Part shown: positions 22,696-61,089 of the stretch, in pieces
Position numbering within the stretch: the first letter of the stretch is position 1
How the letters are laid out: each line of letters opens with the position of its first letter
NCBI GenBank assembly: GCA_001915065.1
Contig: MNDT01000061.1
Coordinates: 2,954 to 66,953 of the forward strand
Source: an archaeon 13_2_20CM_2_53_6
Lineage (GTDB): Archaea; Thermoproteota; Bathyarchaeia; 40CM-2-53-6
DNA length: 64,000 nucleotides
Direction: 5' to 3'
Translations under genes and position numbers: made by a program
Notes under the pieces: generated by a model
What the model was told of the DNA's origin: nothing
The model's database searches: none
Seen by the model: the letters and a program-made list of their open reading frames with translations, nothing else

Positions 22696-22764
22696 CACTT
22701 TCAGAGTACCACGAATCGTACTGTTCTCCTCTCTCTATTACAAGCTTATGGATCTTGGTCGTGC

Positions 22765-22972: not shown

Positions 22973-22979
22973 AAAAGTG

Positions 22980-24923: not shown

Positions 24924-24944
24924 GTGCACGAGAAAACGCCTAGA

Positions 24945-36210: not shown

Positions 36211-36330
36211 GGCTTATCGGCTGTTTTCAGTAGTTGCCGTGTGGCGGCCTCCAAGCGTGCGAAACCCGCCGCGTGGGACCCCACTCCCGGATCGCTGATC
36301 AGGGCTTATTCTGGGGCGATTTGCCGGATC
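36113..36330 (+). repeat. orc1 upstream promoter/leader element (copy 2; 34-bp perfect core at 36113-36146)
   Basis: See copy 1 at 24945-25155. Similarity extends ~185 bp downstream of the core (gtcgtct.gccatctgaaacagaattg.gcgaaatt... through ...gatcagggctt). Confidence 0.7.
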
Positions 36331-36467: not shown

Positions 36468-37706
36468 GTGGAAGTAATCAAAGTGCAGAAGAACAGCCTA
36501 GCCGCACCCGGCGAGATCGTCCGAGAAGCGCTCTCCAAACCAACCATATTCAAGAACGAAGAGCCGCTCAGCCTAGAGTGGCTGCCGCCCCGCCTCCCAC
36601 ACCGGGAGACCCAGCTACGCTTCCTAACAGAACTCTTCCGATCCGTCATAGACAAGCCCGGAACCACCAGCCCGAAGGTCCTGATAACCGGAGAGATCGG
36701 AACAGGAAAGACTGTTCTGACGCAACGGTTCGGGATGGACATTCAACGCACCGCCCGGACACTGAAGCAGAACCTCCAGTACATCCACGTCAACTGTCGC
36801 GAGTTCCGCGGCAGCCTCTTCATGATCCTCAAACAGGTACTGCAGAAGTTCACCCCGCAGTTTCCCCAGCGCGGATTCTCCAGCGAAGAACTCTTGCATA
36901 TACTGCTGGACCAGCTGGAGACGAAGAACCTCCACATTATTCTCACACTAGACGAGGCCGATGTCCTGATCGCCGCGGAAGGATCAACAAGCCTCTACAA
37001 CCTGACGCGTATTCAGGAGGAGCGGCCCGGTCGTCCCATACGACTGTCGCTGATAGTGGTACTGCGCGAGATAGAGAAGCTACAGGATCTCGATAGGAGT
37101 ACGCAGAGCACACTGCAGCGGAACCTGATACGGCTCGACCGGTACTCGGCCAGCCAGCTGGAATCGATCCTCAGAGAACGAGTAGAGCTGGCGTTCAAGG
37201 AAGGGACGATATCAGAACAGGTCGTGGATTTCGTGGCGGACATGGCGGCGCCGGCAGGCGATGCGAGATACGCGATCGAACTGGTCTGGCGCGCTGGAAA
37301 ATATGCTGATACTGAAGGGTCGCGGGAGGTCCGGGCGGAGCATGTCCGGGCCGCGGCCCAGAGCGTCTACCCGGTGATGAGGACAGACTACGCCCAGCAC
37401 CTGAACCTGCACGAAAAGCTGCTACTCCTGGGCCTTGCTAGGACCTTGGAGCGGACACAGGAGACGTACGCGTCGATGGGCGAGAGTGAGATAGCCTACA
37501 AGATGGCGTGCGAGGAGTACAAGGAACAGTTCAGAGCGCATACCCAGGTCTGGAAGTATGTCCAGAACCTCAGCGCCACGGGAATAGTCTCGACCCAGCC
37601 CTCGACCGCGGGGTTCAGAGGAAAGACGACGCTGCTGGGACTGCCCACAGCCCCGGCCTCGGCGATACGACGATGGCTAGAGTCGAGCCTAGTACGCAGG
37701 CCCTAA
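36468..37706 (+). CDS. orc1: Orc1/Cdc6 replication initiator (AAA+ plus C-terminal winged helix)
   Basis: Walker A GEIGTGKT, Walker B LTLDEADVL, sensor motifs, and a C-terminal wH. GTG start. Confidence 0.85.
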   Translation: MEVIKVQKNSLAAPGEIVREALSKPTIFKNEEPLSLEWLPPRLPHRETQLRFLTELFRSVIDKPGTTSPKVLITGEIGTGKTVLTQRFGMDIQRTARTLKQNLQYIHVNCREFRGSLFMILKQVLQKFTPQFPQRGFSSEELLHILLDQLETKNLHIILTLDEADVLIAAEGSTSLYNLTRIQEERPGRPIRLSLIVVLREIEKLQDLDRSTQSTLQRNLIRLDRYSASQLESILRERVELAFKEGTISEQVVDFVADMAAPAGDARYAIELVWRAGKYADTEGSREVRAEHVRAAAQSVYPVMRTDYAQHLNLHEKLLLLGLARTLERTQETYASMGESEIAYKMACEEYKEQFRAHTQVWKYVQNLSATGIVSTQPSTAGFRGKTTLLGLPTAPASAIRRWLESSLVRRP

Positions 37707-39071: not shown

Positions 39072-39464
39072 TCATTTTGGGCTGTGAAGGCCGCCCCCTC
39101 GAACAGCCTCAGACCGAACCTTCTTCGGACGCTCAAACCTAGTCTCCTCTAGAACTATTCCATTGCGTATAGCGTCCTTCACGTAGGTGCTTCTCTGTCG
39201 AAGCTTTCGAAACTCTTCGACCGTGTAGCCGAAGGCTTCTAAGGGGATCCTGTTCTTCCATTCCTTCTGAAGATAGCGCAGTCTCTCGGGGACCGGCATG
39301 GCGGAGAAGCCGTCGGAGACGATTATCAGGTCTATGTCACTATCCTCCAGATAAGTTCCGGAGGCCCAAGAGCCGGTCAGTATCACCTTGTTGATCGTCA
39401 TGTTTCGGGCCAGCCGTTGAATGTATTGCCTGGTTATTCTCTTGATATTCTTCTCTTTAGCCAT
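39072..39464 (-). CDS. Minimal nucleotidyltransferase (MNT, Pol-beta superfamily), partner of the HEPN protein
   Basis: GSWASGTYLEDSDIDLIIV (GS...D.D catalytic motif). Confidence 0.7.
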   Translation of the reverse strand: MAKEKNIKRITRQYIQRLARNMTINKVILTGSWASGTYLEDSDIDLIIVSDGFSAMPVPERLRYLQKEWKNRIPLEAFGYTVEEFRKLRQRSTYVKDAIRNGIVLEETRFERPKKVRSEAVRGGGLHSPK

Positions 39465-39850
39465 CGGACGAGTTCTCCCACTTCTCTGAGATATCTCTGG
39501 GCCTGCTCCTTTTTGAATAGTGTCCCCGGTGCCCCGAGAGCAGCGTCTGGGTATTCGGATGGGAGATAGAGAGGGGAAAGATCGTCCAGCGTTCTGATCA
39601 GCTTCGGGGATAGTTTCGCCTGTCGAGCAACCATTGCGTGAAGCCGGACCAGGTTGTGGCCGCTGGCCCCTCTCGGGGGCCTCTTCCTCTCAGAGAGGAT
39701 TGCCGCTTTCAGCGCCTTTTCCGCAGAGTTGTGCAGGACATGGATGCATTTGCTGTACTTTCCACCCTTGAAGAGAAGCTGGGCGGACTCGTAATCATCG
39801 ATCGCAGCCTCCAGCCACCATCCCGCGTCTTCGCGGACCGCCCTAGCCAA
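39434..39850 (-). CDS. HEPN-domain protein (HEPN-MNT toxin-antitoxin-like module)
   Basis: R-x4-H motif (RGASGHN) in a helical ~130-aa protein; overlaps the downstream MNT gene by ~30 nt. Confidence 0.65.
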   Translation of the reverse strand: MARAVREDAGWWLEAAIDDYESAQLLFKGGKYSKCIHVLHNSAEKALKAAILSERKRPPRGASGHNLVRLHAMVARQAKLSPKLIRTLDDLSPLYLPSEYPDAALGAPGTLFKKEQAQRYLREVGELVRWLKRRISRE

Positions 39851-43205: not shown

Positions 43206-43664
43206 TCATCTCTCCACATAGTCGCCCAGAACAATTATCTGCAGCTCGCTGACTCTCTTCAGTTTGTCGTCATTGGTAACGAAGCCGGTTGCGCGGTTTG
43301 AGAGTGCGGTGCCAATCTGGATAGCGTCCGGCGGTTTGAGGCCATAGGCGGCTCTTAGGTCCGAAGCCCTCTCTGCACAATTATCATCTATCGGTTTCAA
43401 CGCGAGATTTGGGAAGGTCTTTAGAAGGAATCTGTAGTCTTCGGCCGCTTGCATGTTTCCGATCTGCTTTGGCCTGACGAGCACTTCCATCAACGTGAGG
43501 GTGGAAGTGAGGGCCTTGAGGCTGCCGTTCTCAACCTCCTCGAGTAGCCGGAGTGTCAGTTTGGAATACTCCGGATCCTTCTCGAGATGGTAGATGAAGG
43601 GTGAAGTGTCGATTCCGACCAGCTTGTGCCTGGCTAGGCTTTTGAGGAGGCCTCTCTCGCCCAT
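43206..43664 (-). CDS. vapC: PIN-domain ribonuclease toxin VapC
   Basis: VGIDTSPFIY and the conserved acidic residues (D..E..D..D). Confidence 0.75.
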   Translation of the reverse strand: MGERGLLKSLARHKLVGIDTSPFIYHLEKDPEYSKLTLRLLEEVENGSLKALTSTLTLMEVLVRPKQIGNMQAAEDYRFLLKTFPNLALKPIDDNCAERASDLRAAYGLKPPDAIQIGTALSNRATGFVTNDDKLKRVSELQIIVLGDYVER

Positions 43665-43891
43665 GATTCTCGCTCCTTCCTCACGTACTCATCTGGCTTG
43701 ACGCCCTTCCAGACATCCTTGTGCAACCCTAGCATGTGCCTAGCATAACTGCGCGGCCGGGGCTTGATCATAACCTTCCCCTTCTCAACCTCGACAACCA
43801 GTTCGTCCCCAGCGCCGACTCCTAACGCTTCCCGGGCCTCTCGCGGGACCACGACCTGGTGTTTCCGGCTCACCCTTACGATGGAGCCCAT
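43634..43891 (-). CDS. vapB: AbrB/SpoVT-family antitoxin VapB
   Basis: VSRKHQVVVPREAREALGVGAGDELVVE; sits upstream of vapC and overlaps it. Confidence 0.65.
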   Translation of the reverse strand: MGSIVRVSRKHQVVVPREAREALGVGAGDELVVEVEKGKVMIKPRPRSYARHMLGLHKDVWKGVKPDEYVRKERESWAREASSKA

Positions 43892-44426
43892 GTAACAATC
43901 ACTTTACTCTTATGGGCGACGCTTTACAATAAACATTCCGCTTTACCCTTAATCCCGGCATGAGGTATCCGTTTCTCCGCGAAATCCCGAAAATAATTCG
44001 TGCGCGCTTATCGGCATGACTCGAAATAAGAGTTTAGCGAAGTAGCGGTTTACCGTAACCTTCTAGACTTATCTGAGAATGACTCGATCTTAGTCTCGAT
44101 CAAGGCGCGTCTATCTGGACTCGTTTGAGGCAGAATCCAAACGGTCACGATTCACAATCCGAGAAGTACTAAGCGCTGCGACTCATGGAGGAAGGCTGTG
44201 GACCCCGGCATCCGTCGTCCTGGGCGAGAATCGGGTCCGGGTTGTTACAAATGAAGGGTCTCTCGAACTGCGACCACGCAGGCTCGTATGGACCGAGCCT
44301 AACAGTTTTCGCATCACCGGACTCAGTAGACGCCTAGCCTTTCGACGCAGCCATCTGCGATTCAAGAGTCCCGAGGAAGCGTCTCGGGCCGCGTCGATCA
44401 TCAAGCAGAATTCCACAGTTCTGGAA

Positions 44427-44900
44427 GTGCCGTGGGTCCCGGTCGAGGAGTTCCCCGTGCAAGTCCGACTAATGATCACTGCGAGGTACGTGGTTCTCCT
44501 AGCCTATGTTGCCTTTTGGAACGTGCTTGTCGGACTATTTCTATTGCTCGTGCTAGGCGCTCTCGGGACATTCGGACTCGTAGCCGGAGTAGTAGCACTC
44601 ATGGGTTACTCAGGATTCCCGCTATGGATAGCAATCGCGCGAACGAGAAGGAAGACCCACGGCTGGCTCAGGATTCAGGGCAGATCGGTTGTCGTGCGAA
44701 GTCTAGATTGGATACCCGTCTTTCCGAAATTGATTGAATGGAAAAGCCCTCAGGTCATTGTTCTTAGAGGCCGGGGGATAAGCTATGAACTGTCCTTTCT
44801 GACCAGTGAGAGTCTAACCCGAGCGGTAGCGAGGATAAGAACCGCCTATCCCGGGGTCCAAGAAATTCTCGCTGAGACGTACATGCAAGATTCACGATGA
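44427..44900 (+). CDS. Membrane protein, hypothetical; its 3' end is duplicated 8.3 kb downstream
   Basis: Two TM helices. The C-terminal 45 codons plus ~15 bp of 3' flank recur at 53081-53253. Confidence 0.35.
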   Translation: MPWVPVEEFPVQVRLMITARYVVLLAYVAFWNVLVGLFLLLVLGALGTFGLVAGVVALMGYSGFPLWIAIARTRRKTHGWLRIQGRSVVVRSLDWIPVFPKLIEWKSPQVIVLRGRGISYELSFLTSESLTRAVARIRTAYPGVQEILAETYMQDSR

Positions 44901-44915
44901 TTTCCTGGTGGCAGA
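44741..44915 (+). repeat. Direct repeat copy A (~175 bp, ~80% identical to 53081-53253)
   Basis: ...gaactgtcctttc...agtctaacccgagcgg...ggtccaaga.attctcg.t.agacgtaca.gcaagat is shared between the two copies. Confidence 0.6.
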
Positions 44916-45302
44916 TTGAGGAACGTCTCTTCATAGACGCGTCCATGCCTCGTACAAAGAGCAGTTCTGCGTCACGAGGATCAACGTTTTTGAGATTTTT
45001 GGAGAGGGGTCCAGCTGGTTGAACAAGATCTGGGCGAGTCTCGTGATTCCGGGCGTGTTATGGGCTGGTCAGGCGCTTTGGATATCGTGGAGGTCAGCGT
45101 GCAGGTCAGCGTGAAAACTGCGCGAGGTCAAATCGTCTTCCCCGATCGTCAATCCGGGCTTGTTCTGCGCTTGTCGGGCTTGAAACGGAACAGTTTCCAA
45201 GTTTCGAATCTTCTGCGTGATGCTTGGCCTGCGTGACCTATAATCGGAAAATAGGACTCGACTGGGTCTGTCACGAGTGGGAGGGCCAAGATCAAAGGTT
45301 GG

Positions 45303-46199
45303 CTAGCAGGGTGCATGGAGATAACTCCGGACGAGACAGGCCGTAAACTTGTAACCTGCGATGTTGAGTCCGAAGGAGCCGGTGACTTGGCTTGCGGCTA
45401 GGAAGGCGATGAAGAATGCGACAACGAGATAGTCTTTGCGGGTCATTCTAATCACCCTTAGGGAAGTTCTCTTGCCGGGGTTGTAGCCGAATCCTCTTGA
45501 TGATATTGCTGCTGCGAGAAACTCAGCCCTTGTAAATGATCTTACTATAGTTGGAATAATGGCTGGGATGTAGAGCCTCAGAGCCTTCACGGGATTCCTG
45601 GTCTTAATCCTCCAGCCCCGGGCCTTCTGCGCTTCGAATATTGTAGTTGCCTGCCTAGCGGTGACCGGTAGGAATCCGAAGGCCACGCTTATGGCCGTGG
45701 TTATCTCTACAGGAACACGGAACTTGCTCCAGGCCAGAGCAACCTCCGTCGGCGAGGTGAAGGTGAGGAGAAGCCTGCCTGCGGTGGCGATTATTATGAG
45801 CCTCTCCATGGCTCCGACCGCGTAGACGAGGTTCTCGATGGTCAGCTTTCCGTAAGGGCCGAAGCTACCGATCTTGGGAATGATGTAGCCGATGATGAGG
45901 GGCTGGATAGTGGAGGAGACGCCGAGCCCAGTGGGTCCGTAGAAGAAGATGTTGAACAGAATGAGGAAGACTAGGGCGGGGGTTAGAAACACAAGTGGTT
46001 TCAGGATTGCCTTGAGGCTCTGCTTCGCGAGAAGCCCCACAGAAATTATCGCGAAAAATAGTGCCGTCAGCCATATAGGATCAGTCCATGCGACCGCGGG
46101 AAGTGTGAATGCAAAGAACCAGAGAAACTTGACTCTGGGGTCCAGACGATGGATCGGACTGTCTTCTTCCTTGTAGCTGAAGAGGTTCAGAACGCTCAT
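45303..46199 (-). CDS. ecfT: ECF transporter transmembrane (T) component, EcfT/CbiQ family
   Basis: CbiQ-like topology and the conserved coupling helix with an ARG motif (EAQKARGWR). Confidence 0.75.
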   Translation of the reverse strand: MSVLNLFSYKEEDSPIHRLDPRVKFLWFFAFTLPAVAWTDPIWLTALFFAIISVGLLAKQSLKAILKPLVFLTPALVFLILFNIFFYGPTGLGVSSTIQPLIIGYIIPKIGSFGPYGKLTIENLVYAVGAMERLIIIATAGRLLLTFTSPTEVALAWSKFRVPVEITTAISVAFGFLPVTARQATTIFEAQKARGWRIKTRNPVKALRLYIPAIIPTIVRSFTRAEFLAAAISSRGFGYNPGKRTSLRVIRMTRKDYLVVAFFIAFLAASQVTGSFGLNIAGYKFTACLVRSYLHAPC

Positions 46200-46237
46200 C
46201 GAAAATTATCCTGCCGATGGGTCAACGATGGTTCAGG

Positions 46238-48016
46238 CTATCCTGTGAGATACGCGATTGCGCTTTCAACATCGAGAATGTCGCGCGGCAGATCGAATTC
46301 TGATGAGAGAGCCTGAAAGAGTGAAGTGATTTGCGGCGGAGCGAGAGACGTCTCTATCAACTTCTCCGGTGCTGAGAAAACCTCTCTTGGACTCCCCGAC
46401 ATGAATATGGCTCCTCGTCTGAAAACGAAGATTAAGTTACAGTATTCCGCGACGAGGTTCATGTTGTGGCTTATGATGATCACTGTCTTGCCGGTGTCGT
46501 TGAATCTCTTACAGATCTCCATTACAGTCTTGGCGCGCGCGTAGTCTTGGCCAGTCGTCGGCTCGTCTACAATGAGCACTCGAGGCTCTAGGGTCATGAT
46601 CGAGCCGAAGGCGACCCTCTGACGAAGTCCCTGGCTTAGGGAGAATGGACTGTGGCTGAGATAATTCTCTATTTCCAGGTCCCTTGCGACTTCCCTGACC
46701 CGACGGCCTATCTCATCCGGAGGCAGTTTCTTGTTCTTGGGTCCGAATTCCAGTTCCTCCTTGACCGTTCGGGCAAAGAACTGGTCGTCTGGGTTCTGAA
46801 AACTGTAGCCCACGATACTGGCTAGCTCGTCTGCTTCCTTTCCCGATGAATCCTCTCCGAAGATCTTGATCCTTCCCTTCGAGGCCTTGTAGAGTCCATT
46901 CAGGAGCTTCGCCGTTGTCGTTTTGCCCGAGCCGTTCTGCCCGACGAAGCCTACAAAGTCGCCTTCTCTAAGAGTAAGATTTAGTTCGGAGATCGCCTGC
47001 GTACCGTCAGGATAGTTGTACGCTACTCCTTCGCACTGGACCGAGATGCGATCGGAAAGCATAGGTGGCTTCTTGTCACTGTTTCGAAGACTGGTCTTCG
47101 GAAGGACGATTCGATGGCTCAGAATTTTTCTGAATGCCTCGATGCCTTCATCTAGTGTTACCGGTATCTTGTCGAGATTGATCCCTTTCTCCATGAGTTT
47201 GTAGGCAAGGCGCGTAACATCGGGGACCTGGATCTCCATTCCCTCGATCAAGCTGGCTCTGGAGAGGACATTGAGGGGCTTGTCGTCGGCTACTATCCTG
47301 CCATTGGACAGAACTATCATTCTGTCTGCGAAGGGCAGGACGTCTTCCAGCTTGTGCTCAACGATGATCACAGTTCTTTTCTCAGTCTTGACAAGTTCTC
47401 TGATCCTTTCGAAAACGAGGGTGGTCCCAATCGGGTCTAGGTTTGATGTGGGCTCGTCGAGAACCAGTATCTGAGGATGCATCACTTCGATTGCAGCAAT
47501 CGCACACGCTTGCTGCTGGCCTCCGGATAGGCTATGAGGGCTCTTCTTCTCCATTCCCACAAGCCGAGAGATTTGGAGGCCTTCGTTGACACGGTTTCTT
47601 ATCTCGGTCGATGGCAGGCAGAAGTTTTCGGGGCCAAATGCCAGTTCCTCCTCGACCGTCGAGTTGAAGAGCTGGTTTGAAGGGTTGTCAAAGCATAATC
47701 CTGTTATGGCTGAGAGAACCGGAACATCATAAACCCTAATGTCCAAGTCCGCGATCGTTACGTTTCCTTGGAGATCTCCGCGAAAGAAATGAGGTATCAG
47801 ACCATTCGTTGTTCTGCAGAGTGTCGTCTTTCCTGCGCCGCTCGGCCCCGTTATTATGATAACTTCGCCTGGGGCGACTTCGAGATCTATTCCTTGGATT
47901 GCGTCTTCTGTCGACCCTTCGTACTTCCACGATAGTCCCTTCATCTTTATGATAGCTTTAGACTTGGAATCGATTTCGGAATTGACGAGTTGGGTTTGTG
48001 GCAGTCCTTCCTGCAA
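46238..48016 (-). CDS. ecfA: ECF/ABC transporter ATPase, fused tandem ATP-binding domains (EcfA1-EcfA2 fusion)
   Basis: Two Walker A motifs (GPSGAGKTT, GQNGSGKTT), two ABC signatures (LSGGQQQ, LSQGLRQ), and two Walker B motifs (LVLDEPT, LIVDEPT). Confidence 0.85.
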   Translation of the reverse strand: MQEGLPQTQLVNSEIDSKSKAIIKMKGLSWKYEGSTEDAIQGIDLEVAPGEVIIITGPSGAGKTTLCRTTNGLIPHFFRGDLQGNVTIADLDIRVYDVPVLSAITGLCFDNPSNQLFNSTVEEELAFGPENFCLPSTEIRNRVNEGLQISRLVGMEKKSPHSLSGGQQQACAIAAIEVMHPQILVLDEPTSNLDPIGTTLVFERIRELVKTEKRTVIIVEHKLEDVLPFADRMIVLSNGRIVADDKPLNVLSRASLIEGMEIQVPDVTRLAYKLMEKGINLDKIPVTLDEGIEAFRKILSHRIVLPKTSLRNSDKKPPMLSDRISVQCEGVAYNYPDGTQAISELNLTLREGDFVGFVGQNGSGKTTTAKLLNGLYKASKGRIKIFGEDSSGKEADELASIVGYSFQNPDDQFFARTVKEELEFGPKNKKLPPDEIGRRVREVARDLEIENYLSHSPFSLSQGLRQRVAFGSIMTLEPRVLIVDEPTTGQDYARAKTVMEICKRFNDTGKTVIIISHNMNLVAEYCNLIFVFRRGAIFMSGSPREVFSAPEKLIETSLAPPQITSLFQALSSEFDLPRDILDVESAIAYLTG

Positions 48017-48261
48017 AGTGTGGGACTCGGCTAGCTCTTGTAGGCTCGGAGCTTTTATACAAATCTGGAAAAGCCTCCACGCGAGCCCCGTATGTACTTA
48101 TAAACCGATTTTGCGTCCGATTTGTCCCATATCCGCCAAAGTTATATCGATCCTGAATCCCATTCTTGAATCGTATGTCGGATAGCCCAAAGAATGTTCG
48201 GGCCGTGCCAACCTCTCCGGGTGGAGTTCCTCCTGCAGTGGCATCGATTGTTCCTAGAAAG

Positions 48262-48852
48262 ATGCTCCTCAGTACTCGAGGAATCGCGATATCGGCGATT
48301 TTGGGAGGCATGGCACTTGTAACAGAAGCTCTGGGACTTTCCCTGCCTGGATATCTTCCTGGTGTAAACTTCAACCTTGTCGGAACCTACCTCTCGATAG
48401 CCACAATGGCGGCGGGACCGTTGGGTGGGATGATTGTTACAATTCTTGATTCGTTCACATCAAGCGTCGGATTCTACGGACTGCCCTTCTACTGGCCCCA
48501 CGTTTTCATTCTAGCATATTTCTGGCCTAAGATCTACAAGCTTTCGAACACGGCTTACAGACTCGGGCTGTACTGGGCTGTCAGTGCGGTAGCGCTCTTC
48601 ACCCAATACTGGGGCTGGTTCTGGCTGTATGTAGTTGTCTTCAAGTACGCTGATACCGTCGTACCGCTTGCGGTCTACAACTTCGGAGGAGGCGCCTTCT
48701 GGATATTCCTCCTCATCTACGCACTGATTCCATCAGCGATCCTAACCGCATTTCCCTCTTTCGTAAAGCCAGAGTGGAAGTTTGCGAATCTGAAGTGGTG
48801 GACCCTTGCCGTCGTAGTGATATTTCTAGCGCTCGCAGCAACGAAGGCGTAG
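48262..48852 (+). CDS. Membrane protein, putative ECF substrate-binding (S) component
   Basis: About 195 aa with about 6 TM helices, divergent from ecfA-ecfT. No family-specific motif was recognised. An alternative start lies at 48166. Confidence 0.35.
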   Translation: MLLSTRGIAISAILGGMALVTEALGLSLPGYLPGVNFNLVGTYLSIATMAAGPLGGMIVTILDSFTSSVGFYGLPFYWPHVFILAYFWPKIYKLSNTAYRLGLYWAVSAVALFTQYWGWFWLYVVVFKYADTVVPLAVYNFGGGAFWIFLLIYALIPSAILTAFPSFVKPEWKFANLKWWTLAVVVIFLALAATKA

Positions 48853-48862
48853 GTAAAGAGTA

Positions 48863-49021
48863 ATGGCAGACCCCACGGACCTTCAGATGGCGGGCGCCAT
48901 AGCGATGATCATCGTCGTCTTCATCCTCGCTGTGATATTTTCCAAGTATTGGCGTCCCAAGGCGACAGAAGAGACGAGTAGGAATCAGCCTGCGAAGATA
49001 GGAAATAAAGGGCTCGGCTGA
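48863..49021 (+). CDS. Small single-TM protein (52 aa), hypothetical
   Basis: MADPTDLQMAGAIAMIIVVFILAVIFSKYWRPK... found by manual translation. It is under 60 aa, so absent from the ORF track. Speculative. Confidence 0.2.
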   Translation: MADPTDLQMAGAIAMIIVVFILAVIFSKYWRPKATEETSRNQPAKIGNKGLG

Positions 49022-49129
49022 GAAACCGTCGCAGCTACTAGACTGCCGAACTCTTTCTATGCCTTATCGCCGCTCGCTCTGAGCCTACGAGTTACGCTAT
49101 AGTTAATCTGATTAGTCGGTCGAACGATC

Positions 49130-51178
49130 TTGGGCTACAGAGTGGCAGTAGACGTCGGTGGCACGTTCACTGACCTGTGCGCCCTTAATGAAGAAACTGG
49201 AGAACTTGTTTTCGTCAAGGACTCTACCACACCAGCAAACTTCGCGCACGGGGTCGTCCAGGTCATCCGGAAGAGCGGACTCAAAAAAGAGGACTTTACC
49301 AGTTTCCTCGGAAACGGTTCAACTATCGTCATCAATGCGATTACTGAGCGGAAAGGAGCGAAGACAGGCCTCATCACCACGAAGGGGTTCAGGGACGTCC
49401 TGGAGATCCAGAGGTCCAACAGGACTGACATGTACAATTTCAGATATGAGAAGCCGAGACCGTTTGTTCCCCGGCATCGCGTCTTCGAAGTGGATGAGCG
49501 GCTCGACTTTCAAGGGAACGTCCTCAAGGCGCTTGACGAGAAGAGCGTCCAGACCGCTCTCGAGAATTGCAAGGGATTTGGTGTGGAGTCGTTAGCGGTT
49601 TGTCTTTACAACTCTTACAGTAATCCGGAGCACGAGGAGGTGATTGGCGAGGCAGCGAGGAAAATTCTTCCTCAGGTTCCTGTGACTCTCTCACATGAGC
49701 TGACGAGAGAGTGGAGAGAGTATGAGCGGATGAACACGGCTGTGATGAACGCATTCGTCCAACCGGTAGTCGACCTGTACTTGAGCACCTTGACCTCGGA
49801 ACTTCGAAAGATGGGCGTGACGATTCCATTGCACGTGATGCAGTCGAACGGCGGCGTCTCGACCTTTGATCGAGCTCGGGAGATTCCTATCTATCAAATT
49901 GAATCAGGTCCGATCGGCGGGATAATTGGAGCCACTTTTCTCGGCAGAGTGATCGGCGAGCCCAATGTCCTCTCACTGGACGTAGGAGGCACGACGGCGA
50001 AGACATCGCTCGTGGATGATGGAGAGGTGAAGGTCAACACGGATTACAAGGTCGCTAGGTCGGCTTTCTCTTCCGGCTATCCTGTGAAGGTGCCGGTTGT
50101 CGATATAGTCGAGATCGGGGCAGGGGGAGGGAGCATAGCTTGGGCCAACGAGGTCGGGTCGTTGAACGTGGGTCCTCAATCGGCTGCAGCCGACCCTGGA
50201 CCCGCCTGCTACGACAGGGGCGGAAAGAGCCCCACAGTCACAGACGCTTTCCTCTTGACAGGAGTAATCGATCCTGACTACTTCTTGGGCGGAGAGATCA
50301 AGCTGCAAAAGTCAAGGTCAGAAGAGGCGTTCAAGGAACTGGCATCGACACTGGGCAGATCCCTCAGAGATGCGGCCATCGGCACGATACAGGTGGCCAT
50401 TGCTAACATGATCAACGCGCTCAAGCTGGTTTCGGTCCGGAGAGGCTACGATCCGAGGGATTTCGCAATGGTGGCTTTTGGTGGAGGGGGTCCCATGTTT
50501 GCAACAGCGTTGGCGAGAGAGCTGGGCGTTGAGAGAGTAATCGTGCCGCGTGTTCCAGGGGTCTTCTCTGCGCTTGGTATGCTTCTGACGGATCTTCGGC
50601 ATGACTTTCTCCAAACGAGGGTGCTTAGGCTGTCCCAAGAGGCTCTGAAAGAAGCCTTGGGTGTTGGAGAGGGATTCAGAGAGGAGGCTGTGAAGAGGTT
50701 TGAAGAAGAGCGTGTGTTGTTAGCGGATGTCTGGCACGAGCTCTCATTCGACCTTAGATACCTAGGCCAGGAGCACACGGTCAACGTTCCAATAGACTGG
50801 AAAGATTCCGTGGCCGACGTAGAGAAGAAATTCCATGATCGTCATTTCAAAGAGTACACCTTCAAGCTAACGGATCCCCTGGAGATCGTGAACATTCACG
50901 TTGCATCCTACGGCAAGGTGAAGAAACCCCGGCTCAAGAAGTACAAAGCGTCAGGCGCGGTCGGCGACGCCCTAAAGGGGAAGAGAAACGTGGTCTTCGA
51001 AAACGGGAAGCTCGTACGGATCCCCGTCTTCCAACGGGACAAGCTACCGTCAAAGAATCGTCTCAAGGGACCCGCGATCATAGAGGAGCCTACTTCTACA
51101 ACCATCTTGCGTCCCGGCGACAAGCTCATGGTCGATGATTATGGAAATCTCATGATCAGTATCCCGGGAAGCGGTTGA
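49130..51178 (+). CDS. hyuA: Hydantoinase/oxoprolinase family protein, A subunit (N-methylhydantoinase A-like)
   Basis: N-terminal VAVDVGGTFTD (ASKHA fold) and the conserved hydantoinase A blocks (LDVGGTTAK...). Confidence 0.85.
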   Translation: MGYRVAVDVGGTFTDLCALNEETGELVFVKDSTTPANFAHGVVQVIRKSGLKKEDFTSFLGNGSTIVINAITERKGAKTGLITTKGFRDVLEIQRSNRTDMYNFRYEKPRPFVPRHRVFEVDERLDFQGNVLKALDEKSVQTALENCKGFGVESLAVCLYNSYSNPEHEEVIGEAARKILPQVPVTLSHELTREWREYERMNTAVMNAFVQPVVDLYLSTLTSELRKMGVTIPLHVMQSNGGVSTFDRAREIPIYQIESGPIGGIIGATFLGRVIGEPNVLSLDVGGTTAKTSLVDDGEVKVNTDYKVARSAFSSGYPVKVPVVDIVEIGAGGGSIAWANEVGSLNVGPQSAAADPGPACYDRGGKSPTVTDAFLLTGVIDPDYFLGGEIKLQKSRSEEAFKELASTLGRSLRDAAIGTIQVAIANMINALKLVSVRRGYDPRDFAMVAFGGGGPMFATALARELGVERVIVPRVPGVFSALGMLLTDLRHDFLQTRVLRLSQEALKEALGVGEGFREEAVKRFEEERVLLADVWHELSFDLRYLGQEHTVNVPIDWKDSVADVEKKFHDRHFKEYTFKLTDPLEIVNIHVASYGKVKKPRLKKYKASGAVGDALKGKRNVVFENGKLVRIPVFQRDKLPSKNRLKGPAIIEEPTSTTILRPGDKLMVDDYGNLMISIPGSG

Positions 51179-51180
51179 GG

Positions 51181-52917
51181 ATGGTCAGGAAGGGAGTTAC
51201 CGAAAGTTTCACCTTGGACATTATCCAGAACTCGCTCATTACTGCCGCCGAAGAGATCTTCGCCGTCTTCGGCCGCACGAGCAAGAGCCCAGTCATCTAC
51301 GAAGTTCTCGATTACGCTTGCGGCTTGACCGACAACCAGGGGAGGATGATTGCGCAAGCGAACGGGGTCCCGGGGTTTCTTGGAACGCTCGACATGGCCG
51401 TCGTCCAAGCGATAAAGAAGTTCGGTCTGAACGGATTTCACAACGGAGACATAATCATAACGAACATTCCCTATACGGACGGGACGCATCTCAATGATGT
51501 TACTCTGATCATGCCCATCTACTATCGTGACGAGATCGTAGCCTTCTCTGCAAACAAAGGGCACTGGAGCGAGGTGGGAGGGATGCACTTTGGCAGCTGG
51601 ACATCAGATTCGACCGAGATCTACCAGGAAGGCCTCCAGTTCCCAACGATCAAACTGTTCAGCAAAGACAAGCCCGTCCAAGAGGTGATCGACATCATCC
51701 GGGCAAACGTAAGGACCCCGACGATGACGCTGGGCGATATGGAGGCCCAGGCCGCGTCCCTGAGAGTGGGGCGAAGACGGGTCCAGGAACTCTGCGACAA
51801 GTACGGGGGTAGGGTCGTTGAGAACGCGATGGAGAGGCTCATCGAGCAAGGAGAGGAACTGATGCTCAAGCGGCTTCGAGAACTGCCACATGGCACGTTC
51901 ATGGCAGAGGATTGGGTTGACGATGATGGGATCACAGACAATCCCGTGCAGGTGAAGGCGAAGGTTGAGATCAGCGATCAGAGCTTCACGATCGACCTTA
52001 CCGGGTCAGGGGCTCAAGCGAAGGGATCAATCAATTCTCCCTGGGTAGCCACGGTCTCGGCCGCCAGAACCATCCTCAAGGCGGTTACTGATCCGCACAT
52101 GCCGGTGACTGATGGTAGCTTCCACCCATTGAAGATCGTCGCGCCGGAGGGTACGATATTCAACCCCAAACCTCCAGCACCCACGTCCACGTACTGGGAG
52201 GCAATGGCCTTTGTGACCGACCTGGTCTGGAAGGCACTCGCGCCAGTGGTGCCTGATAGGCTGACTGCAGGTCACTTTCTGAGCGTCTGCGCGACCATCG
52301 TCGGCGGCATAGACGACAGGTCGAAGGAGCCGTTTGCCATCGTCGAGCCGCAGGCCGGTGGCTGGGGGGCCGGGAAGGGAAAGGACGGTGAGAGCGGGCT
52401 TGTCTGCAGCGGCGACGGCGAGACATACATCATGTCTAATGAGGTGATCGAGGTCCGCCATCCAATCATAGTGGAACAGTACTCGCTCAACGTAGAAGAT
52501 GGCGTGTCTCACGGAGAGTTCAGGGGTGGCTTCGGTCTCGTCAAAGACTATCGGATCAACAACTCCAACGCGACCTTCACCGCATCCTTCGGGAGATCGA
52601 AGTATCCTCCATGGGGAATGAACGGAGGAGACGGCGGAGGACCCAACTACTTCATCATCTACAAGTCAGGAAGAGAGCCTTTCAAGACAAGAAAAGTCGC
52701 AGCTGTCGAACTTGGAAAGGGAGACTTGATCAGGCTGAAGACCGGGCGTGGGGGAGCATACGGGAATCCGCTCGATAGAGACCCGAAACGCGTCGCTGAC
52801 GATGTCCGAGACGGATACTTGACGCCGGAAACTGCGAAAGAGAAGTATGAAGTCGTTCTTCCCATAGACTTGGACCCCGACCAGAGGAGAACCGAAACAA
52901 CACGAAAGAGTCGGTGA
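51181..52917 (+). CDS. hyuB: Hydantoinase B/oxoprolinase family protein, B subunit
   Basis: The hydantoinase B signature region (DYACGLTDNQGRMIAQANGVPGFLG...) follows hyuA with a 2-nt gap, typical of A/B pairs. Confidence 0.85.
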   Translation: MVRKGVTESFTLDIIQNSLITAAEEIFAVFGRTSKSPVIYEVLDYACGLTDNQGRMIAQANGVPGFLGTLDMAVVQAIKKFGLNGFHNGDIIITNIPYTDGTHLNDVTLIMPIYYRDEIVAFSANKGHWSEVGGMHFGSWTSDSTEIYQEGLQFPTIKLFSKDKPVQEVIDIIRANVRTPTMTLGDMEAQAASLRVGRRRVQELCDKYGGRVVENAMERLIEQGEELMLKRLRELPHGTFMAEDWVDDDGITDNPVQVKAKVEISDQSFTIDLTGSGAQAKGSINSPWVATVSAARTILKAVTDPHMPVTDGSFHPLKIVAPEGTIFNPKPPAPTSTYWEAMAFVTDLVWKALAPVVPDRLTAGHFLSVCATIVGGIDDRSKEPFAIVEPQAGGWGAGKGKDGESGLVCSGDGETYIMSNEVIEVRHPIIVEQYSLNVEDGVSHGEFRGGFGLVKDYRINNSNATFTASFGRSKYPPWGMNGGDGGGPNYFIIYKSGREPFKTRKVAAVELGKGDLIRLKTGRGGAYGNPLDRDPKRVADDVRDGYLTPETAKEKYEVVLPIDLDPDQRRTETTRKSR

Positions 52918-53080
52918 GGGCTCGGTTCTCAGCGGACTAGAACAATCCCCTATAGGATTCATCGATCTGAACACGATCACGGAATCCTCCGCAGATCTTG
53001 TCTCCCAGGCGAACTCGAACGAACAGGCACAGGAGAGTTCTTCGCAGAATACAGCCTCAACGTCGAACCACAAGCAGCTA

Positions 53081-53253
53081 GGAAAGCCTCGGGTCATTCC
53101 TCCTAGACGCCGCGGGACCACGTACGAACTGTCCTTTCCAACTACTGAAAGTCTAACCCGAGCGGTTACGAGAACAAGAGCCGTATACCCGGGAGTCCAA
53201 GAGATTCTCGGTTAGACGTACAGGCAAGATCCAAGGTGATTCCAGGTTGATGG
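53081..53253 (+). repeat. Direct repeat copy B: truncated, stop-containing duplicate of the 3' end of gene 44427-44900
   Basis: Encodes ...RRGTTYELSFPTTESLTRAVTRTRAVYPGVQEILG* with no upstream ORF; similarity continues past the stop. Confidence 0.6.
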
Positions 53254-54335
53254 TATCAGAGCGTAACTGGACGACCTCAACAAGATAGACCGGCTGCAGC
53301 TGCCATGAATCGAGAACGCAAAACGAAGACACGACTGGACCAGACGCCTATGGCCCATGCCGGACATGAGCGAAAGAATCCAGAACCTAACATTGGACTA
53401 ATTATCTCTCATGAGTCTCAGGAACTGAAATAACTAGAAGACGACCAAACCAGTTATCTGACACGGGTCGAAATACCAGTCCGGGCAGTTCTGCGTCGCG
53501 AGACCAGCACGCATACCCTATTTTTCGAGACGCTCTATTGCTAGTCGGATCTTTACAGGGACCCATCAAGAATCCTGTTCGCGTCTCTCTAAGGTCAAGC
53601 CGATCTTATCACTGACATAGACGGCTAGGCCGTTTTCTAGGCGTTTTCCTTTGCACCCTCAGGGTCAGCAGCGTCTCCAGCCTCGGGGGTCTGATATCCT
53701 TCCGCCACGGAGATTGGTTACAGCATGCTGAAGCATCAAGACAGCGAGGGATCCAGATCGGCAAGGATTGAGCGAGATCGTCCATGACCTGGTGCGTCAA
53801 ATGCTCAGACTGCCCTTCGACGACGCCACCATAGTCTTCCACCTCAAATCGGCCAAGATTCGCAACGCGCAACAGATCCTGGACAGCGTCCTAGCAGAGG
53901 CCAAACAAGAAGCAATAGCCCAACTATCTTCCAGAAACCGCTAGATCAACGGATAGCGTCTTAGCAGTCAAATGCCAAGCAGGTCATTGAGACAGCAGAA
54001 GCCCAAGAGATCGTCTGCCGAGAATTCCACGAACAACTCTACGAAAATACCTCGACGCAACACGCGTGAAATGAGAAACATGGATCATCGACGGCGACCC
54101 TACTGCACCCACACGATCCCATGAACCTAAGACAGGTTGAACTGCAAGAAGTCTCGGAGATTGGGCTCGGAGACCTGATTCTCTTGATGACACTATCGCG
54201 ACGATTTTGCGTTCATCACTTGTGAGGGGTGTTGTAAAGATGATGTGTCAAGCACTTTCTGCAATGAATCCACGCTCCACACTTCCAACATTTCACCCAC
54301 TGAGATTTGCCTTCTTGTGGCAATGGTTCTGAGGA

Positions 54336-54698
54336 GTGTCTCTCCGATCGTCCGGGCATCGAATCTATACTGCTTTACCGCAAGGCTATTTTCGATTTGC
54401 TTTCGACTCGGCGAGGAGGTTCGCACGGAAGAACCTCGCAACACAGATCATAATCGCGAACGAGCAGACCCGGGACACTCTTCCTCCCTCCCGGGTCCAG
54501 ACAGAGTCTCGAAAGATCACGATAACCGAGCGAGGCTTGCAAGAGATCAGAACCGGCCGCTATGGAAGGGTCCAGCTGCCCAGCCAGGAAGAGGCCCGCT
54601 ACTGGCTCCAACAATGGCGTGAAGCCGCTATGCCCAAGGAAGAGGTTGTTGTACGCAAGAACTTGGTTCGGAGAAAACCACCAGAGGTGAGAGAATGA
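54336..54698 (+). CDS. Hypothetical protein (low confidence)
   Basis: 120-aa ORF. Its stop overlaps the next ORF start (ATGA at 54695), which suggests a two-gene unit. No homology was recognised. Confidence 0.2.
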   Translation: MSLRSSGHRIYTALPQGYFRFAFDSARRFARKNLATQIIIANEQTRDTLPPSRVQTESRKITITERGLQEIRTGRYGRVQLPSQEEARYWLQQWREAAMPKEEVVVRKNLVRRKPPEVRE

Positions 54699-54949
54699 CA
54701 AAGAACAAGACCCGAGAAGGACCACTACCGCCGCCCGATAAGGGAGTCAATGATGCGAGACCTGGACTGCCAACTCCAACAGTGCGGAAACCTGTTACCT
54801 GGGTCCAACCAGAACCAACGACAGCCGACGTTACGCGACCTCAACAGCTGAGCCCAGACACGACATGGGCCGAGCCCAGCGTCGCCAAGTCGAAGCTGGC
54901 AAGAGGGTCCCCAGGGCTCTCAACCACTAGGGACCAGACAAAAGAGTAG
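54695..54949 (+). CDS. Hypothetical Pro/Thr-rich protein (low confidence)
   Basis: 84 aa; composition-biased. Confidence 0.15.
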   Translation: MTKNKTREGPLPPPDKGVNDARPGLPTPTVRKPVTWVQPEPTTADVTRPQQLSPDTTWAEPSVAKSKLARGSPGLSTTRDQTKE

Positions 54950-55386
54950 GCACCAAACGATGGTCCGGTCCAAGTACGTTATTTGGTTGTCTTGTAGTTT
55001 GATTGCTAGTTCTTGTTCCATTCGTGAGGGGTTGGCGTGTAGTCGTTCGCGCCAGTCGCTCCGCTGACTCGACATCTGCAATCTTGAGCTAGGGTTCGGC
55101 TATTGCTCAGACACGAGAGCGAAACTGCCTGTACTCTCGTCCATCTCTCCAGACTAAGAACACAGAGGCCACCATCACCACTTCCATGGAGGCTGCAAGA
55201 CCCGCACGCGACACTGGTCTGTGCTTGAAGGCGTCCTCAGCCTCCTCCTGACCATCGAGTTGGTCCCTCAACCCTCAATCGATACAGCCTTGAAAAGTGT
55301 CTTGTGGAGACTGAGCTATGCAGGTGAAGGTGTCCTGCAGAGGAAGACTTACATGTATCCTGCATGTAATTTTAGATGGATACTAA

Positions 55387-55635: not shown

Positions 55636-56058
55636 TTGCGGCTCTTCATCGACACTGGACCCTTCATGGCCAGGCATAACAAGAGAGACAAGCAACATTC
55701 CTATGCCGTCCAATCATTCGACAAGATCAGAGATGGAGAGACGGCATACAGGAAACTCTACACCTCTGACTATATCCTGGATGAGGCTGTAACTGGATGC
55801 CGGCAGAGAACACACAACCACGGACTCTCAGTCGAACTCGGCACCCTCATCCTCTCCTCCGAATCACTTCTCATGCTCAGAGTTGACGAGGATACTCTCT
55901 TGGAGGCCTGGGAACTCTTCAAGTCGAGGAGAGAGATACCGCTCAGTCTGACCGACTGTACTTCTGCAATACTCGCGAGAAAACATGGAATAACAGACGT
56001 CTACAGTTATGACAGCGACTTTGAAGCGCTGGGTTTCAGGGTGCTCGCGCGACTCTAG
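55636..56058 (+). CDS. vapC: PIN-domain toxin VapC
   Basis: MRLFIDTGPFMA...D.E...TDCTS...SYDSDF: the four conserved acidic PIN residues. Confidence 0.7.
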   Translation: MRLFIDTGPFMARHNKRDKQHSYAVQSFDKIRDGETAYRKLYTSDYILDEAVTGCRQRTHNHGLSVELGTLILSSESLLMLRVDEDTLLEAWELFKSRREIPLSLTDCTSAILARKHGITDVYSYDSDFEALGFRVLARL

Positions 56059-56626: not shown

Positions 56627-57028
56627 CTATTCTCCTCTGTTCTCAGCTAAATTGGTTGCTATCCATTCTTCCACGCGGTCGAGTGAGATTCTGCCGGCTG
56701 CGATATCCGCTAGAAAGACATACGTCTCTTGAGATTTGGCTTTGATCTCATATCCATTCAGTCGGAGGAATAGTTTCACGAGTTCGAATGCTGTCCTCTT
56801 GTTTCCATTCACGAATGGGTGCTGTGAGATAAGATTGTAGAGTAGGAATGATGCTTTCCTCTTGACCGCGTGACGATCACCTGCGTTCCCGCCGATCTGT
56901 TTCACCGCTTCTAACACATATTCCAAATTGGACCTGCTGAGATCCCCGTGCTCGCCACCAGTCACGTCTAGGACACGATTGTGTAAGCGCTCAACCTGTT
57001 CTAACGAGGGGTACCTGATTCCCTTCAT
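56627..57028 (-). CDS. doc: Fic/Doc-family toxin (death-on-curing)
   Basis: Fic motif HPFVNGNKRTA. Confidence 0.8.
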   Translation of the reverse strand: MKGIRYPSLEQVERLHNRVLDVTGGEHGDLSRSNLEYVLEAVKQIGGNAGDRHAVKRKASFLLYNLISQHPFVNGNKRTAFELVKLFLRLNGYEIKAKSQETYVFLADIAAGRISLDRVEEWIATNLAENRGE

Positions 57029-60849: not shown

Positions 60850-61089
60850 TTGGGCCAGGTCGCGACGGTCACCAGCAAGAGCATGATAACCATCCCTGCA
60901 AAGATACGGCAGAAGTACGGCTTCAAGCAGGGGTCCAAGCTCGAGTTCATCGACACCGAGGAAGGCATACTCCTAGTCCCCGTCAAGACCCTGCGCGAGC
61001 TGAGGGGCGCGTTCAAGTCGCATGAGAAGATCATCCGGCAAGCCATCAAAGAAATGGAACGGGAGCACAGAGAGGAAGCCCGGACCTGA
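60850..61089 (+). CDS. vapB: AbrB/SpoVT-family antitoxin VapB
   Basis: SKSMITIPAKIRQKYGFKQGSKLEF. Confidence 0.65.
   Translation: MGQVATVTSKSMITIPAKIRQKYGFKQGSKLEFIDTEEGILLVPVKTLRELRGAFKSHEKIIRQAIKEMEREHREEART

Follow-up and report, generated by a model that had tools for sequence, protein, structure and literature searches.

An energy-coupling factor importer and HyuAB gene cassette between two copies of a gene's 3' end in the chromosome of a soil Nitrososphaerota archaeon

The DNA analysed (the window) was a 64,000-nucleotide stretch of contig MNDT01000061.1 (positions 2,954 to 66,953, forward strand; assembly GCA_001915065.1) of the archaeon 13_2_20CM_2_53_6. An 8.3-kb segment of it carries genes for an energy-coupling factor (ECF) transporter and for the hydantoinase-type proteins HyuA and HyuB, and lies between two copies, A and B, of the 3' end of a single gene, referred to here as X. 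The window holds the archaeal chromosome markers of an S3/S4e/L18/S5 ribosomal-protein operon, two KaiC genes and Orc1/Cdc6 (36468-37706), and is the chromosome of a soil Nitrososphaerota archaeon. Contigs near-identical to it originate from soil metagenomes, among them Angelo-type samples such as JGI 3300012211 and 3300026343 and ENA ERZ28573540. The closest hyuB products in GTDB genomes were 64-76% identical and belonged to metagenome-assembled genomes of Nitrososphaerales, 'Thaumarchaeota' and Caldarchaeales. With a probability of about one half, the segment is read here as a strain-variable chromosomal cassette, the scar of a recombinational insertion in a flexible, toxin-antitoxin-rich region. 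The comparison set comprised about 95 related contigs, labelled L001 onward. Related loci were obtained from a metagenome scan with an alignment of X (59 loci) and by exact-protein look-up (19 added loci), and all were mapped onto the window.

Two genes of the cassette lie on the minus strand. These are ecfT (45303-46199), encoding the transmembrane (TM) T component (Pfam CbiQ, 2.4e-25; TIGR02454 matched weakly, below its cutoff), and a fused ecfA-ecfA' gene (46238-48016) encoding a protein of 592 residues with two Pfam ABC_tran stretches. The fused product scored 454 bits against the NCBIfam model ECF_ATPase_1 (cutoff 315) and 443 bits against ECF_ATPase_2 (cutoff 330). Divergently adjacent on the plus strand is a gene for a protein of 228 residues (48166-48852), followed directly by a gene for a single-TM microprotein of 52 residues with no Pfam match (48863-49021). 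The plus strand then continues with hyuA (49130-51178; Pfam Hydantoinase_A with its N and C domains, Hydant_A_N and Hydant_A_C, the three matches lying at 5e-95, 7e-51 and 1e-12) and hyuB (51175-52917; Pfam Hydantoinase_B, 3.9e-167). HyuA and HyuB are full length, their genes are adjacent and all subunit domains are present. The best NCBIfam models were CapA for HyuA (521 bits) and CapB for HyuB (256 bits), each against a cutoff of 1000, so that the pair falls outside the CapAB equivalog.

The 228-residue protein had no Pfam or NCBIfam match. The PF12822 profile missed it and was found in one of its homologues. A model built with AlphaFold2 from 33 homologues had six TM helices, a predicted local distance difference test score (pLDDT) of 86 and a predicted TM-score (pTM) of 0.80. 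When this model was searched against the PDB with Foldseek, the top 11 matches were all ECF S components (ThiT, RibU and others), with probabilities of 0.87-1.0 and target TM-scores of 0.43-0.67. The predicted fold confirms the protein as an ECF S component, apparently of a new family. EcfT, two EcfA domains and an S component with a six-helix fold are thus encoded together, as in group I ECF transporters. The gene content given in the initial annotation (ecfT, a fused ecfA, an S component, a 52-residue reading frame and hyuA-hyuB) was borne out by the Pfam matches, by the S fold and by conservation of the microprotein.

The S gene, ecfA, ecfT and hyuAB are also adjacent in five other archaeal loci, with differing gene orders. 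These are L068 (Nitrososphaerales), L079 (Archaeon HR01), L085 (labelled 'Thermoprotei'), L096 (a JGI, Joint Genome Institute, metagenome contig labelled BSDYNP) and L097 (soil). Since this linkage recurs, it is taken as an old functional partnership and not as a chance juxtaposition. In all six clusters, the window's included, a single-helix protein of 43-64 residues with the motif GAIxMIxIVFxLAxxF..KW+ is encoded directly after the S gene, and it is a candidate extra subunit of the importer. The cargo is a self-contained operon pair, in which the dedicated ECF importer would take up a small substrate and HyuA/HyuB, an ATP-dependent enzyme of the hydantoinase/oxoprolinase/caprolactamase family, would open it. 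The pairing of an importer with a ring-opening enzyme, proposed initially, is upheld by the five other loci, and the accompanying proposal of a cyclic amide was judged sound; we infer the substrate class to be most likely a cyclic amide. No publication joining 'energy-coupling factor' with 'hydantoinase' was found.

Upstream of the cassette lies X (44115-44900, +), the anchor gene of the variable region, which encodes a membrane protein in which a TM hairpin separates two pleckstrin homology (PH)-like domains. An AlphaFold2 model of the protein had a pLDDT of 75, and its top Foldseek matches were tandem-PH proteins. Homologues of X have 262-275 residues and are restricted to this soil archaeal clade; no relatives were found in GTDB species representatives. 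The initial annotation had taken the duplicated gene to be the open reading frame (ORF) 44427-44900, of 157 residues. X is longer than that, its frame being open and conserved from 44094. After the preceding in-frame TAG no ATG, GTG or TTG occurs, and there is no canonical start before the GTG at 44427 (44079-44127 reads MTRS, stop, SRSRRVYLDSFEAE). The same layout was seen in at least 10 related loci. The CTG at 44115 aligns with the M/L start of distant X homologues, and X likely uses a non-canonical start.

X is a mosaic of three modules that switch sharply at about 44450 and 44750, as seen in L010, L014, L017, L025 and other loci. Its N-terminal module is conserved, its TM-hairpin module (44450-44750) shows either 100% or about 58% identity to the window, depending on the class, and its tail module (44750-44900) falls into classes that are 100/~90% or about 80% identical; all combinations of modules occur. 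Both hairpin classes are found among strains with flanks of more than 90% identity, and the modules reassort freely. Such hypervariability is typical of diversifying selection or of ancient balanced alleles. Between the hairpin and tail modules lies a stretch of about 30 nt (44735-44765, +; GAATGGAARAGYCCTCAGGTCATTGTTCT, encoding EWKSPQVIVL) that is nearly invariant among the X alleles and in which natural recombinants between alleles cross over. L010 and L009 match the window fully before this stretch and at about 80% beyond it; in L025, identity to the window rises from about 58% before the stretch to 100% beyond it.

A repeat search of 44-56 kb recovered a single direct-repeat family, at 44748-44902 and 53087-53241 (155 nt, 79% identity, ungapped). 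Comparison of the window with itself by blastn widened the repeat to 44743-44902 and 53083-53241 (78.75% over 160 nt, E 3e-33 to 4e-31), and weak similarity persists for about 15 nt beyond the stop codon, in agreement with the imperfect direct repeat of about 175 bp reported initially. Copy A (44743-44915, +) comprises the last 50 codons of X, encoding the last two strands and the C-terminal helix of the second PH-like domain, plus about 15 nt. Copy B (53083-53255, +) is a pseudogene relic of the X 3' end, and was matched by the X product in a tblastn search at 53087-53236 (E 1.3e-16, 50 codons at 68% identity). Copies A and B have no exact run in common longer than 17 nt; this run (AGTCTAACCCGAGCGGT) lies within a protein-constrained stretch. 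The 5' edge of the repeat coincides with the near-invariant stretch of the X alleles, inside which the homology of copy B starts, and is conserved no better than the rest of the repeat.

Copy B is in frame with the X C-terminus and reads YELSFPTTESLTRAVTRTRAVYPGVQEILG, stop, TYRQDPR, stop. A TAG (53213-53215) occupies the position of a Glu codon, and the frame closes with a TGA at 53237-53239. As annotated initially, there is no ORF upstream of it: in the ORF list of the window no frame of at least 40 residues ends at copy B, and no start codon precedes it. TAG is the commonest stop codon in the window, where it ends 23 of the 48 confident genes, and the TAG in copy B is therefore a genuine premature stop. 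An alternative code with read-through of TAG, considered for copy B and for the codons upstream of X, was ruled out by these 23 genes, by the missing start of copy B and by the frameshift in the L067 copy. Counterparts of copy B were found in L065 and L066 (both 98.8% identical) and in L067 (87%); all have the same TAG, and L067 has an additional frameshift. Against the X tails of the close clade, copy B is an outgroup, with 68-76% identity versus 77-100% among the tails themselves. Because the TAG is common to three relatives, L067 is further frameshifted and copy B takes this outgroup position, it is an old, dead relic. A multi-copy X family as the source of the repeat was considered and ruled out: the window has one full copy plus B, the only B-type copy in the self-search, and the X alleles of other strains sit at one locus with a shared left flank. 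The repeat is a genuine duplication, and the duplicated 3' end belongs to a gene with a single locus.

A second gene tail lies behind copy B. Gene Y encodes a membrane protein of about 300 residues and is found directly 3' of X in the distant relatives L039 (10782-11687) and L043. In the window its last ~45 codons, with an in-frame stop, form a relic at 53262-53406 (+), in which tblastn matched Y residues 259-300 to 53267-53392. The distant L008 has a full X with a shorter Y relic directly behind it; the truncation point of that relic differs from the one in the window. Copy B and the Y relic are collinear with X-Y of L039 and L043 and with X and the Y relic of L008. Because Y adjoins the 3' side of X in distant relatives, the two relics together are the remnant of an X-Y locus. 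Y tails also occur as direct repeats around cassettes of 2-3 kb in L065/L066 (with Fic), L039 and L008, and several Y relics begin within about 8 codons of each other. In L065 (2650-4609) and in L066, an ORF for a secreted protein and a Fic gene lie between two Y-tail relics that are about 78% identical, with a NERD-domain gene after them. This Fic cassette has the architecture of the ECF-hyuAB cassette on a smaller scale.

The same relics could be explained without any insertion, if the locus ancestrally held two full X paralogues, X_A upstream and an X_B-Y pair downstream of ECF-hyuAB, and X_B and Y later lost their 5' parts. The deep divergence of copy B from all A-type tails would follow from such an origin, and coding constraint seems to have acted while part of the A/B divergence built up. 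The differences between A and B at codon positions 1, 2 and 3 number 7, 11 and 15, compared with 3, 5 and 16 between two functional alleles, and are less biased towards third positions, in line with copy B being an old relic. Deletions (in L088 and L089, described below) and many truncated genes are also known from the region. However, neither two full X genes nor a full X after hyuB was found in any of the 59 scan loci or the look-up loci. Two deletions would be needed, each sparing only the tail of 45-50 codons of adjacent genes, and the 5' edge of copy B falls in the allele crossover zone. Random deletion gives no reason to expect it there, the chance that a random 5' truncation of a second X copy would end in that zone being only a few percent. 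With no locus carrying two full X genes, a double trimming required and the edge of copy B in the crossover zone, insertion is favoured over the decay of a paralogue, which we regard as improbable.

Copy B, the Y relic and a fragment of a third gene make up a relic block of 706 nt (52935-53640, +) that is missing from the cassette-bearing contigs L088 and L089. The block ends in a 17-nt imperfect direct repeat with 13/17 matches (GGGCTCGGTTCTCAGCG / AGGCCGTTTTCTAGGCG). The third gene, d559, belongs to a family of small ORFs of about 135 residues that has no Pfam match and is intact in several strains (e.g. L012, 3974-4378). Elsewhere only its first 35-42 codons survive, joined repeatedly to different downstream blocks. 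In the window, a degenerate 5' fragment of d559 (ELK, stop, LEDDQTSYLTRVEIPV) lies at 53424-53502 (+), and a truncated one of the first 35 codons lies at 54971-55128 (-) and is a multi-copy junction module in related loci. In the survey of the d559 family the two fragments were placed at 53424-53485 (+) and 54971-55075 (-). An assignment of d559 to DUF559/Vsr-like nucleases, suggested by a motif, was dropped for want of a Pfam match. Three elements termed R3, R4 and R5 were each single-copy in the window by sensitive blastn, so that R3/R4 are no diverged inverted-repeat pair; nor are R3 and R4 the ends of a mobile element, having been identified as gene fragments, a Y tail and a d559 head. The DNA downstream of copy B is made up of gene relics and non-coding blocks, in agreement with the very low coding density remarked on initially for 53.25-55.4 kb. 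The 1.5 kb from 53500 to 54970 hold no coherent gene and are 82-95% conserved in other strains, in both orientations; ORFs of L028 and L044 extend into them as apparent read-through. The region as a whole is a patchwork of gene fragments, including Y tails, 5' ends of d559 and, in L012, a duplicated part of the left flank.

Between X and ecfT, 65 nt of flank are followed by a short conserved box (44955-44985, +; CAAAGAGCAG-TTCTGCGTCACGAG-GATCAAC), which opens a non-coding element termed R2 that extends to 45205. Strain to strain, synteny 3' of X breaks exactly at the start or at the end of the box. The box consensus is about 35 nt (CAAAGAGCAG-TTCTGYGTCRCGAG-GAKCAAC). Exact copies of its 14-nt core stand at just two places in the window, at 44965, at the start of the R2 element of about 240 nt, and at the end of the truncated d559 fragment (TTCTGCGTCGCGAG, 53489-53502). 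R2 contained no ORF and no covariation-supported structure, and had no Rfam match and no copy in IMG/VR. A structured RNA was rejected, the covariation term of RNAalifold being positive (unfavourable).

Diverged box-bearing units of the same family were also found 3' of other genes. These include an HSP20 gene (25145-25384, -; a second, weaker unit stands in tandem at 24938-25144, -), the ORF that closely precedes orc1/cdc6 (36109-36316, +) and, in distant relatives, an intron-bearing tRNA. Units of this type share the box of about 35 nt, which is followed by one of three body types (window; L008, L039, L050, L051). They always lie 20-65 nt 3' of a gene end on the same strand, sometimes in tandem, at synteny breakpoints. 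The units at 24938-25144 (-) and 36109-36316 (+) are an 80% identical inverted pair around the ribosomal-protein operon and the two KaiC genes, and the right-hand one lies about 150 nt upstream of orc1/cdc6. The distant relatives L008 (4922-5057), L050 (8291-8430) and L051 (1934-2066) have a tRNA-like gene that is interrupted by internal insertions and missed by ARAGORN (3' end TTCAAATCCCGGCGGCCGCACCA); an R2 unit follows it within about 35 nt, and the whole X region lies just downstream. Elsewhere in the window, the ribosomal protein L30 gene has a partial second copy (86% over 214 nt; the stretches concerned are 22661-23131, -, and 26209-26422) 3.2 kb past the operon end. An HSP20 gene, two R2 units and a methyltransferase gene lie between the two, and a further 140-nt repeat of 74% identity connects 19.4 kb (19414-19554) with 23.0 kb. 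The L30 region appears to be another cassette bracketed by duplication of a gene fragment.

The variable region opens directly after an ICMT-family methyltransferase gene (43081). The left junction of the cassette, running from X through the 65-nt flank and R2 into ecfT, was found on 13 contigs (L001-6, L010, L014, L017, L019, L024, L057 and L088) with 88-96% identity across the junction. The right junction, from hyuB into copy B and the Y relic, is common to L065 and L066; L067, a contig starting at 53055, past hyuB, has copy B and the Y relic. On further contigs an X allele is followed by unrelated DNA and no cassette (L012/L015/L054, L013, L016, L022/L023, L026-29, L038, L044). The left flank at 40.4-43.08 kb was 94-96% identical to the window both in cassette-bearing contigs (L017, L057) and in cassette-free ones (L013, L016, L023, L026-29), as measured on contigs long enough to include it; no contig extends into the right flank past 55.2 kb. 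Because such closely similar left flanks are found with different DNA after X, the cassette is a presence/absence polymorphism within the population, with breakpoints in conserved anchor sequence. Cassette-bearing and cassette-free states co-occur in the same samples. Some of the cassette-free DNA matches 53.4-55.1 kb of the window in inverted order.

Toxin-antitoxin genes are abundant around X in the window, comprising MNT/HEPN (39072-39850), MazE/PIN (43206-43891), PIN (55636-56058), Fic (56627-57028) and MazE (60850-61089). At the same site other strains carry genes for Mrr, a methyltransferase, HNH, type I restriction-modification, Fic, NERD and NTP_transf_2/HEPN.

L088 and L089 require separate treatment. 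Both carry the cassette, share 98.9% identity with the window along most of hyuB and jump from 52934 to 53641. Within 52601-53950, the last 334 nt of hyuB are about 94.5% and the right flank about 93.5% identical to the window, a range of 93.5-94.6% that corresponds to a lineage diverged by 5-6%. The drop in identity therefore indicates a recombination break at the right edge of the cassette, near the 3' end of hyuB. The missing block is most simply read as a secondary deletion of 706 nt between the 17-nt imperfect repeats. Deletion is favoured only because the block holds the X and Y tails in native order. On the opposite polarity, the block would have been translocated later into a cassette like that of L088 and L089, and the repeat flanking it would be a coincidence in a junk-rich region. 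The existence of two cassettes without the block, the imperfect repeat at its bounds and the recurrence of the region's blocks at different places and in different orientations all agree with late arrival, and the lineage behind the right junction of L088/L089 is as diverged as L065 and L066, which leaves the polarity unfixed. Set against this, an X tail and then a Y tail lie directly 3' of the cassette in native order and orientation, the block is shared by the window, L065 and L066 (its B/Y part also by L067) over a range of 97% to 85% identity, and microhomology deletion leaves an indel bounded by a direct repeat such as this one of 13/17. Late arrival of the block is judged highly improbable. 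The initial annotation had named the same gene order without repeats as grounds for rejecting a duplication at the borders; L088 and L089 formally show that arrangement, and secondary deletion remains the simplest account of it.

Hallmarks of mobility were sought in several ways. No integrase or transposase was found among about 75 window ORFs scanned against Pfam, either singly or in alignment mode, in agreement with the initial annotation. None was found among the best 25 of 95 families matched by 148 ORFs (122 from related loci and 26 from the window), a search in which weak single matches could be hidden. The cassettes flanked by Y tails contained no integrase, and no replication or transfer gene was found in these, in the window ORFs scanned or among the 25 families listed for the 148 ORFs. 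A compositional deviation, suggested initially as a check, was not seen. The cassette has a GC content of 53.4%, compared with 52.8% in the rest of the window, a tetranucleotide z of -0.5 to -0.65, and GC contents at third codon positions of 0.57-0.69, inside the range of other window genes. The only compositional outlier of the window is a cluster of sugar-nucleotide and glycosyltransferase genes at 9-21 kb (GC about 49% versus 53%, tetranucleotide z >2). X, the 17-mer shared by copies A and B and the box were absent from IMG/VR, save for one chance match of the 17-mer in an unrelated contig of 37% GC. No exact attachment (att) core longer than 17 nt exists between A and B. ARAGORN and Rfam (at gathering and E-value thresholds) gave no tRNA or known RNA at the borders; a single ARAGORN prediction of a tRNA with a 1.5-kb 'intron', obtained with introns allowed, was spurious. 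An integron-type cassette array was also rejected: no integrase was found in the ORFs scanned, box/R2 has no supported secondary structure, and the cargo is a divergent pair of multi-gene operons.

These results bear on whether the segment is a decayed or satellite integrative element, with a tyrosine-recombinase-type integrase encoded elsewhere or lost, an attP that supplied a replacement X tail, and A and B as attL and attR. Such an element would have the right topology. The insertion lies in the 3'-distal part of X with the frame restored, X being intact through copy A with its new tail and the displaced old tail, copy B, lying at the far border. Of 68 mapped thaumarchaeal integrated elements, 14 use 3'-distal parts of protein-coding genes, and the median att length of known elements is 17 bp (PMC6563490), equal to the longest exact A/B run. 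The Y-tail direct repeats around the cassettes of L065/L066, L039 and L008, the Y relics that start at nearly the same codon, the conserved box at synteny breakpoints and the position of the X region just downstream of a tRNA gene and then R2 in distant relatives are further points of agreement. Against integration by such an element stand the missing integrase, transposase, replication and transfer genes in the searches above, the native composition, a repeat of 160 nt at 79% that has no better-conserved core at its 5' edge, the lack of an empty site in close relatives, the IMG/VR result and a cargo that is a conserved archaeal metabolic operon. With no recombinase in the ORFs scanned, native composition, no close empty site and a long, inexact repeat, recombinational insertion is therefore favoured over a classical integrative element, which we consider rather unlikely. 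A self-mobile or site-specifically integrated element is not demonstrable here. Of the two readings offered initially for the duplicated gene end, insertion of a cassette by recombination is thus the better fit, and site-specific integration of a mobile element finds no integrase in the ORFs scanned, no foreign composition and no empty site in close relatives to rest on.

We infer the direction and mechanism of the founding event as follows. The site would earlier have held an X-Y gene pair, of which copy B and the Y tail would be the dead remains. The incoming DNA would have consisted of an X tail, the 65-nt flank, box/R2 and the ECF-hyuAB genes, and would have joined the resident X inside the stretch of about 30 nt common to all X alleles. 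A circular intermediate could have been joined in through a single crossover, or a homologous crossover on one side could have been combined with one illegitimate join. The join would have rebuilt an intact X and displaced the old tail 8.3 kb downstream, where it then decayed. Later movement of the cassette among strains would have occurred by ordinary homologous recombination in the flanks, and one lineage would have lost the relic block. Three models leave the same footprint, namely site-specific integration, a Campbell-type single crossover and a one-sided homologous plus illegitimate join.

Several observations weigh against this reading. The initial annotation had proposed a comparison with related genomes for an empty site, with 44427-44900 directly before the 53.3-kb flank. 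No clean empty site, with X running directly into the flank of copy B, was found in close relatives, where cassette-free strains carry other DNA after an A-type tail; the only one is in the distant L008, and its junction is different. L022/L023, in which X is followed by R2 and a Y relic, were rejected as an empty site, since their relic is part of a different composite (R2, a gamma unit and Y residues 276-300) and not the 259-300 of the window. All X genes of the close clade have an A-type tail, most with the same 65-nt flank, whether or not the cassette is present. On that basis the founding event would be older than the clade, and strains without the cassette would have lost or replaced it secondarily. 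Otherwise, the donor would have come from another lineage than the recipient; the data do not fix the order of events. L088 and L089 carry the cassette and no copy B, as described. As to the cargo, the match to the caprolactamase models lies below their cutoffs and does not fix substrate specificity. Lastly, the regularity of the breakpoints at the box and of the co-starting Y relics exceeds what random illegitimate recombination would give, and leaves room for a site-specific process.

Such a process could take the form of a previously undescribed cassette-exchange system of Nitrososphaerota that is encoded elsewhere and acts in trans at box sites. The case for it is made by the position of the box 20-65 nt 3' of unrelated genes (X, HSP20, the ORF upstream of orc1/cdc6 and a tRNA), by the breaks in synteny between strains at the box, and by four cassettes that are bracketed by diverged repeats of the last 25-50 codons of a gene (X tails around ECF-hyuAB; Y tails in L065/L066, L039 and L008). 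We hold this quite unlikely. If true, ECF-hyuAB would be one of the cargoes carried by a recombination system that works site-specifically and in trans, with a logic analogous to that of integrons or tycheposons.

If the cassette is a recombinational insertion, the locus would show the gain and loss of a metabolic trait, probably the uptake and ATP-driven opening of a lactam or other cyclic amide, within one uncultured soil Nitrososphaerota population. The vehicle of the trait would be recombination at a hypervariable anchor gene near the replication-initiator locus, and not a classical mobile element. The box and the recurrent tail relics are leads to genome flexibility in a phylum whose known att sites are very short. 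The cargo itself defines a new ECF S-component family, whose one-helix partner appears obligatory and whose genes are coupled to hyuAB in the genomes of several archaeal lineages, and offers a testable transporter-enzyme pair.

Among known systems, the cassette resembles flexible genomic islands that are exchanged by homologous recombination. It shares with them presence/absence between left flanks that are about 95% identical, native composition, toxin-antitoxin genes (in the window), restriction-modification genes (in related strains at the same site) and a mosaic anchor with sharp breakpoints. It differs in the diverged 160-bp duplicate of the anchor tail at the far border and in breakpoints at a non-coding box, and its right conserved flank is present on no contig. 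With the thaumarchaeal 'cryptic integrated elements' (PMC6563490) it shares a gene-tail target, a restored gene end, direct repeats at the borders and a metabolic cargo. It differs from these in having no integrase or hallmark gene, a repeat about 10 times the typical att length at 79% identity, no close empty site and native composition. Campbell-type pop-in and homology-facilitated illegitimate recombination leave the same footprint, with duplicated homology around the insert and no dedicated recombinase, and the junction lies here in the best-conserved stretch of X; the circular intermediate or donor arrangement of these models was not observed. Both kinds of event are known mainly from laboratory genetics and bacterial transformation.

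The importer is like the group I ECF systems (BioMNY, CbiMNQO, YkoEDC) in encoding S, T and A together, in the ThiT/RibU six-helix S fold and in its fused ATPase, as in YkoD. It departs from them in an S family that lies outside Pfam and NCBIfam, in the additional single-TM microprotein and in its coupling to HyuAB instead of a vitamin or metal pathway. HyuA and HyuB have the full-length A and B domains of HyuAB/OplAB/CapAB enzymes, with CapA and CapB as the nearest curated models at scores far below the equivalog cutoffs. While the kind of cassette is already known, what is new here is a previously undescribed S-component family in a transporter-enzyme pairing.

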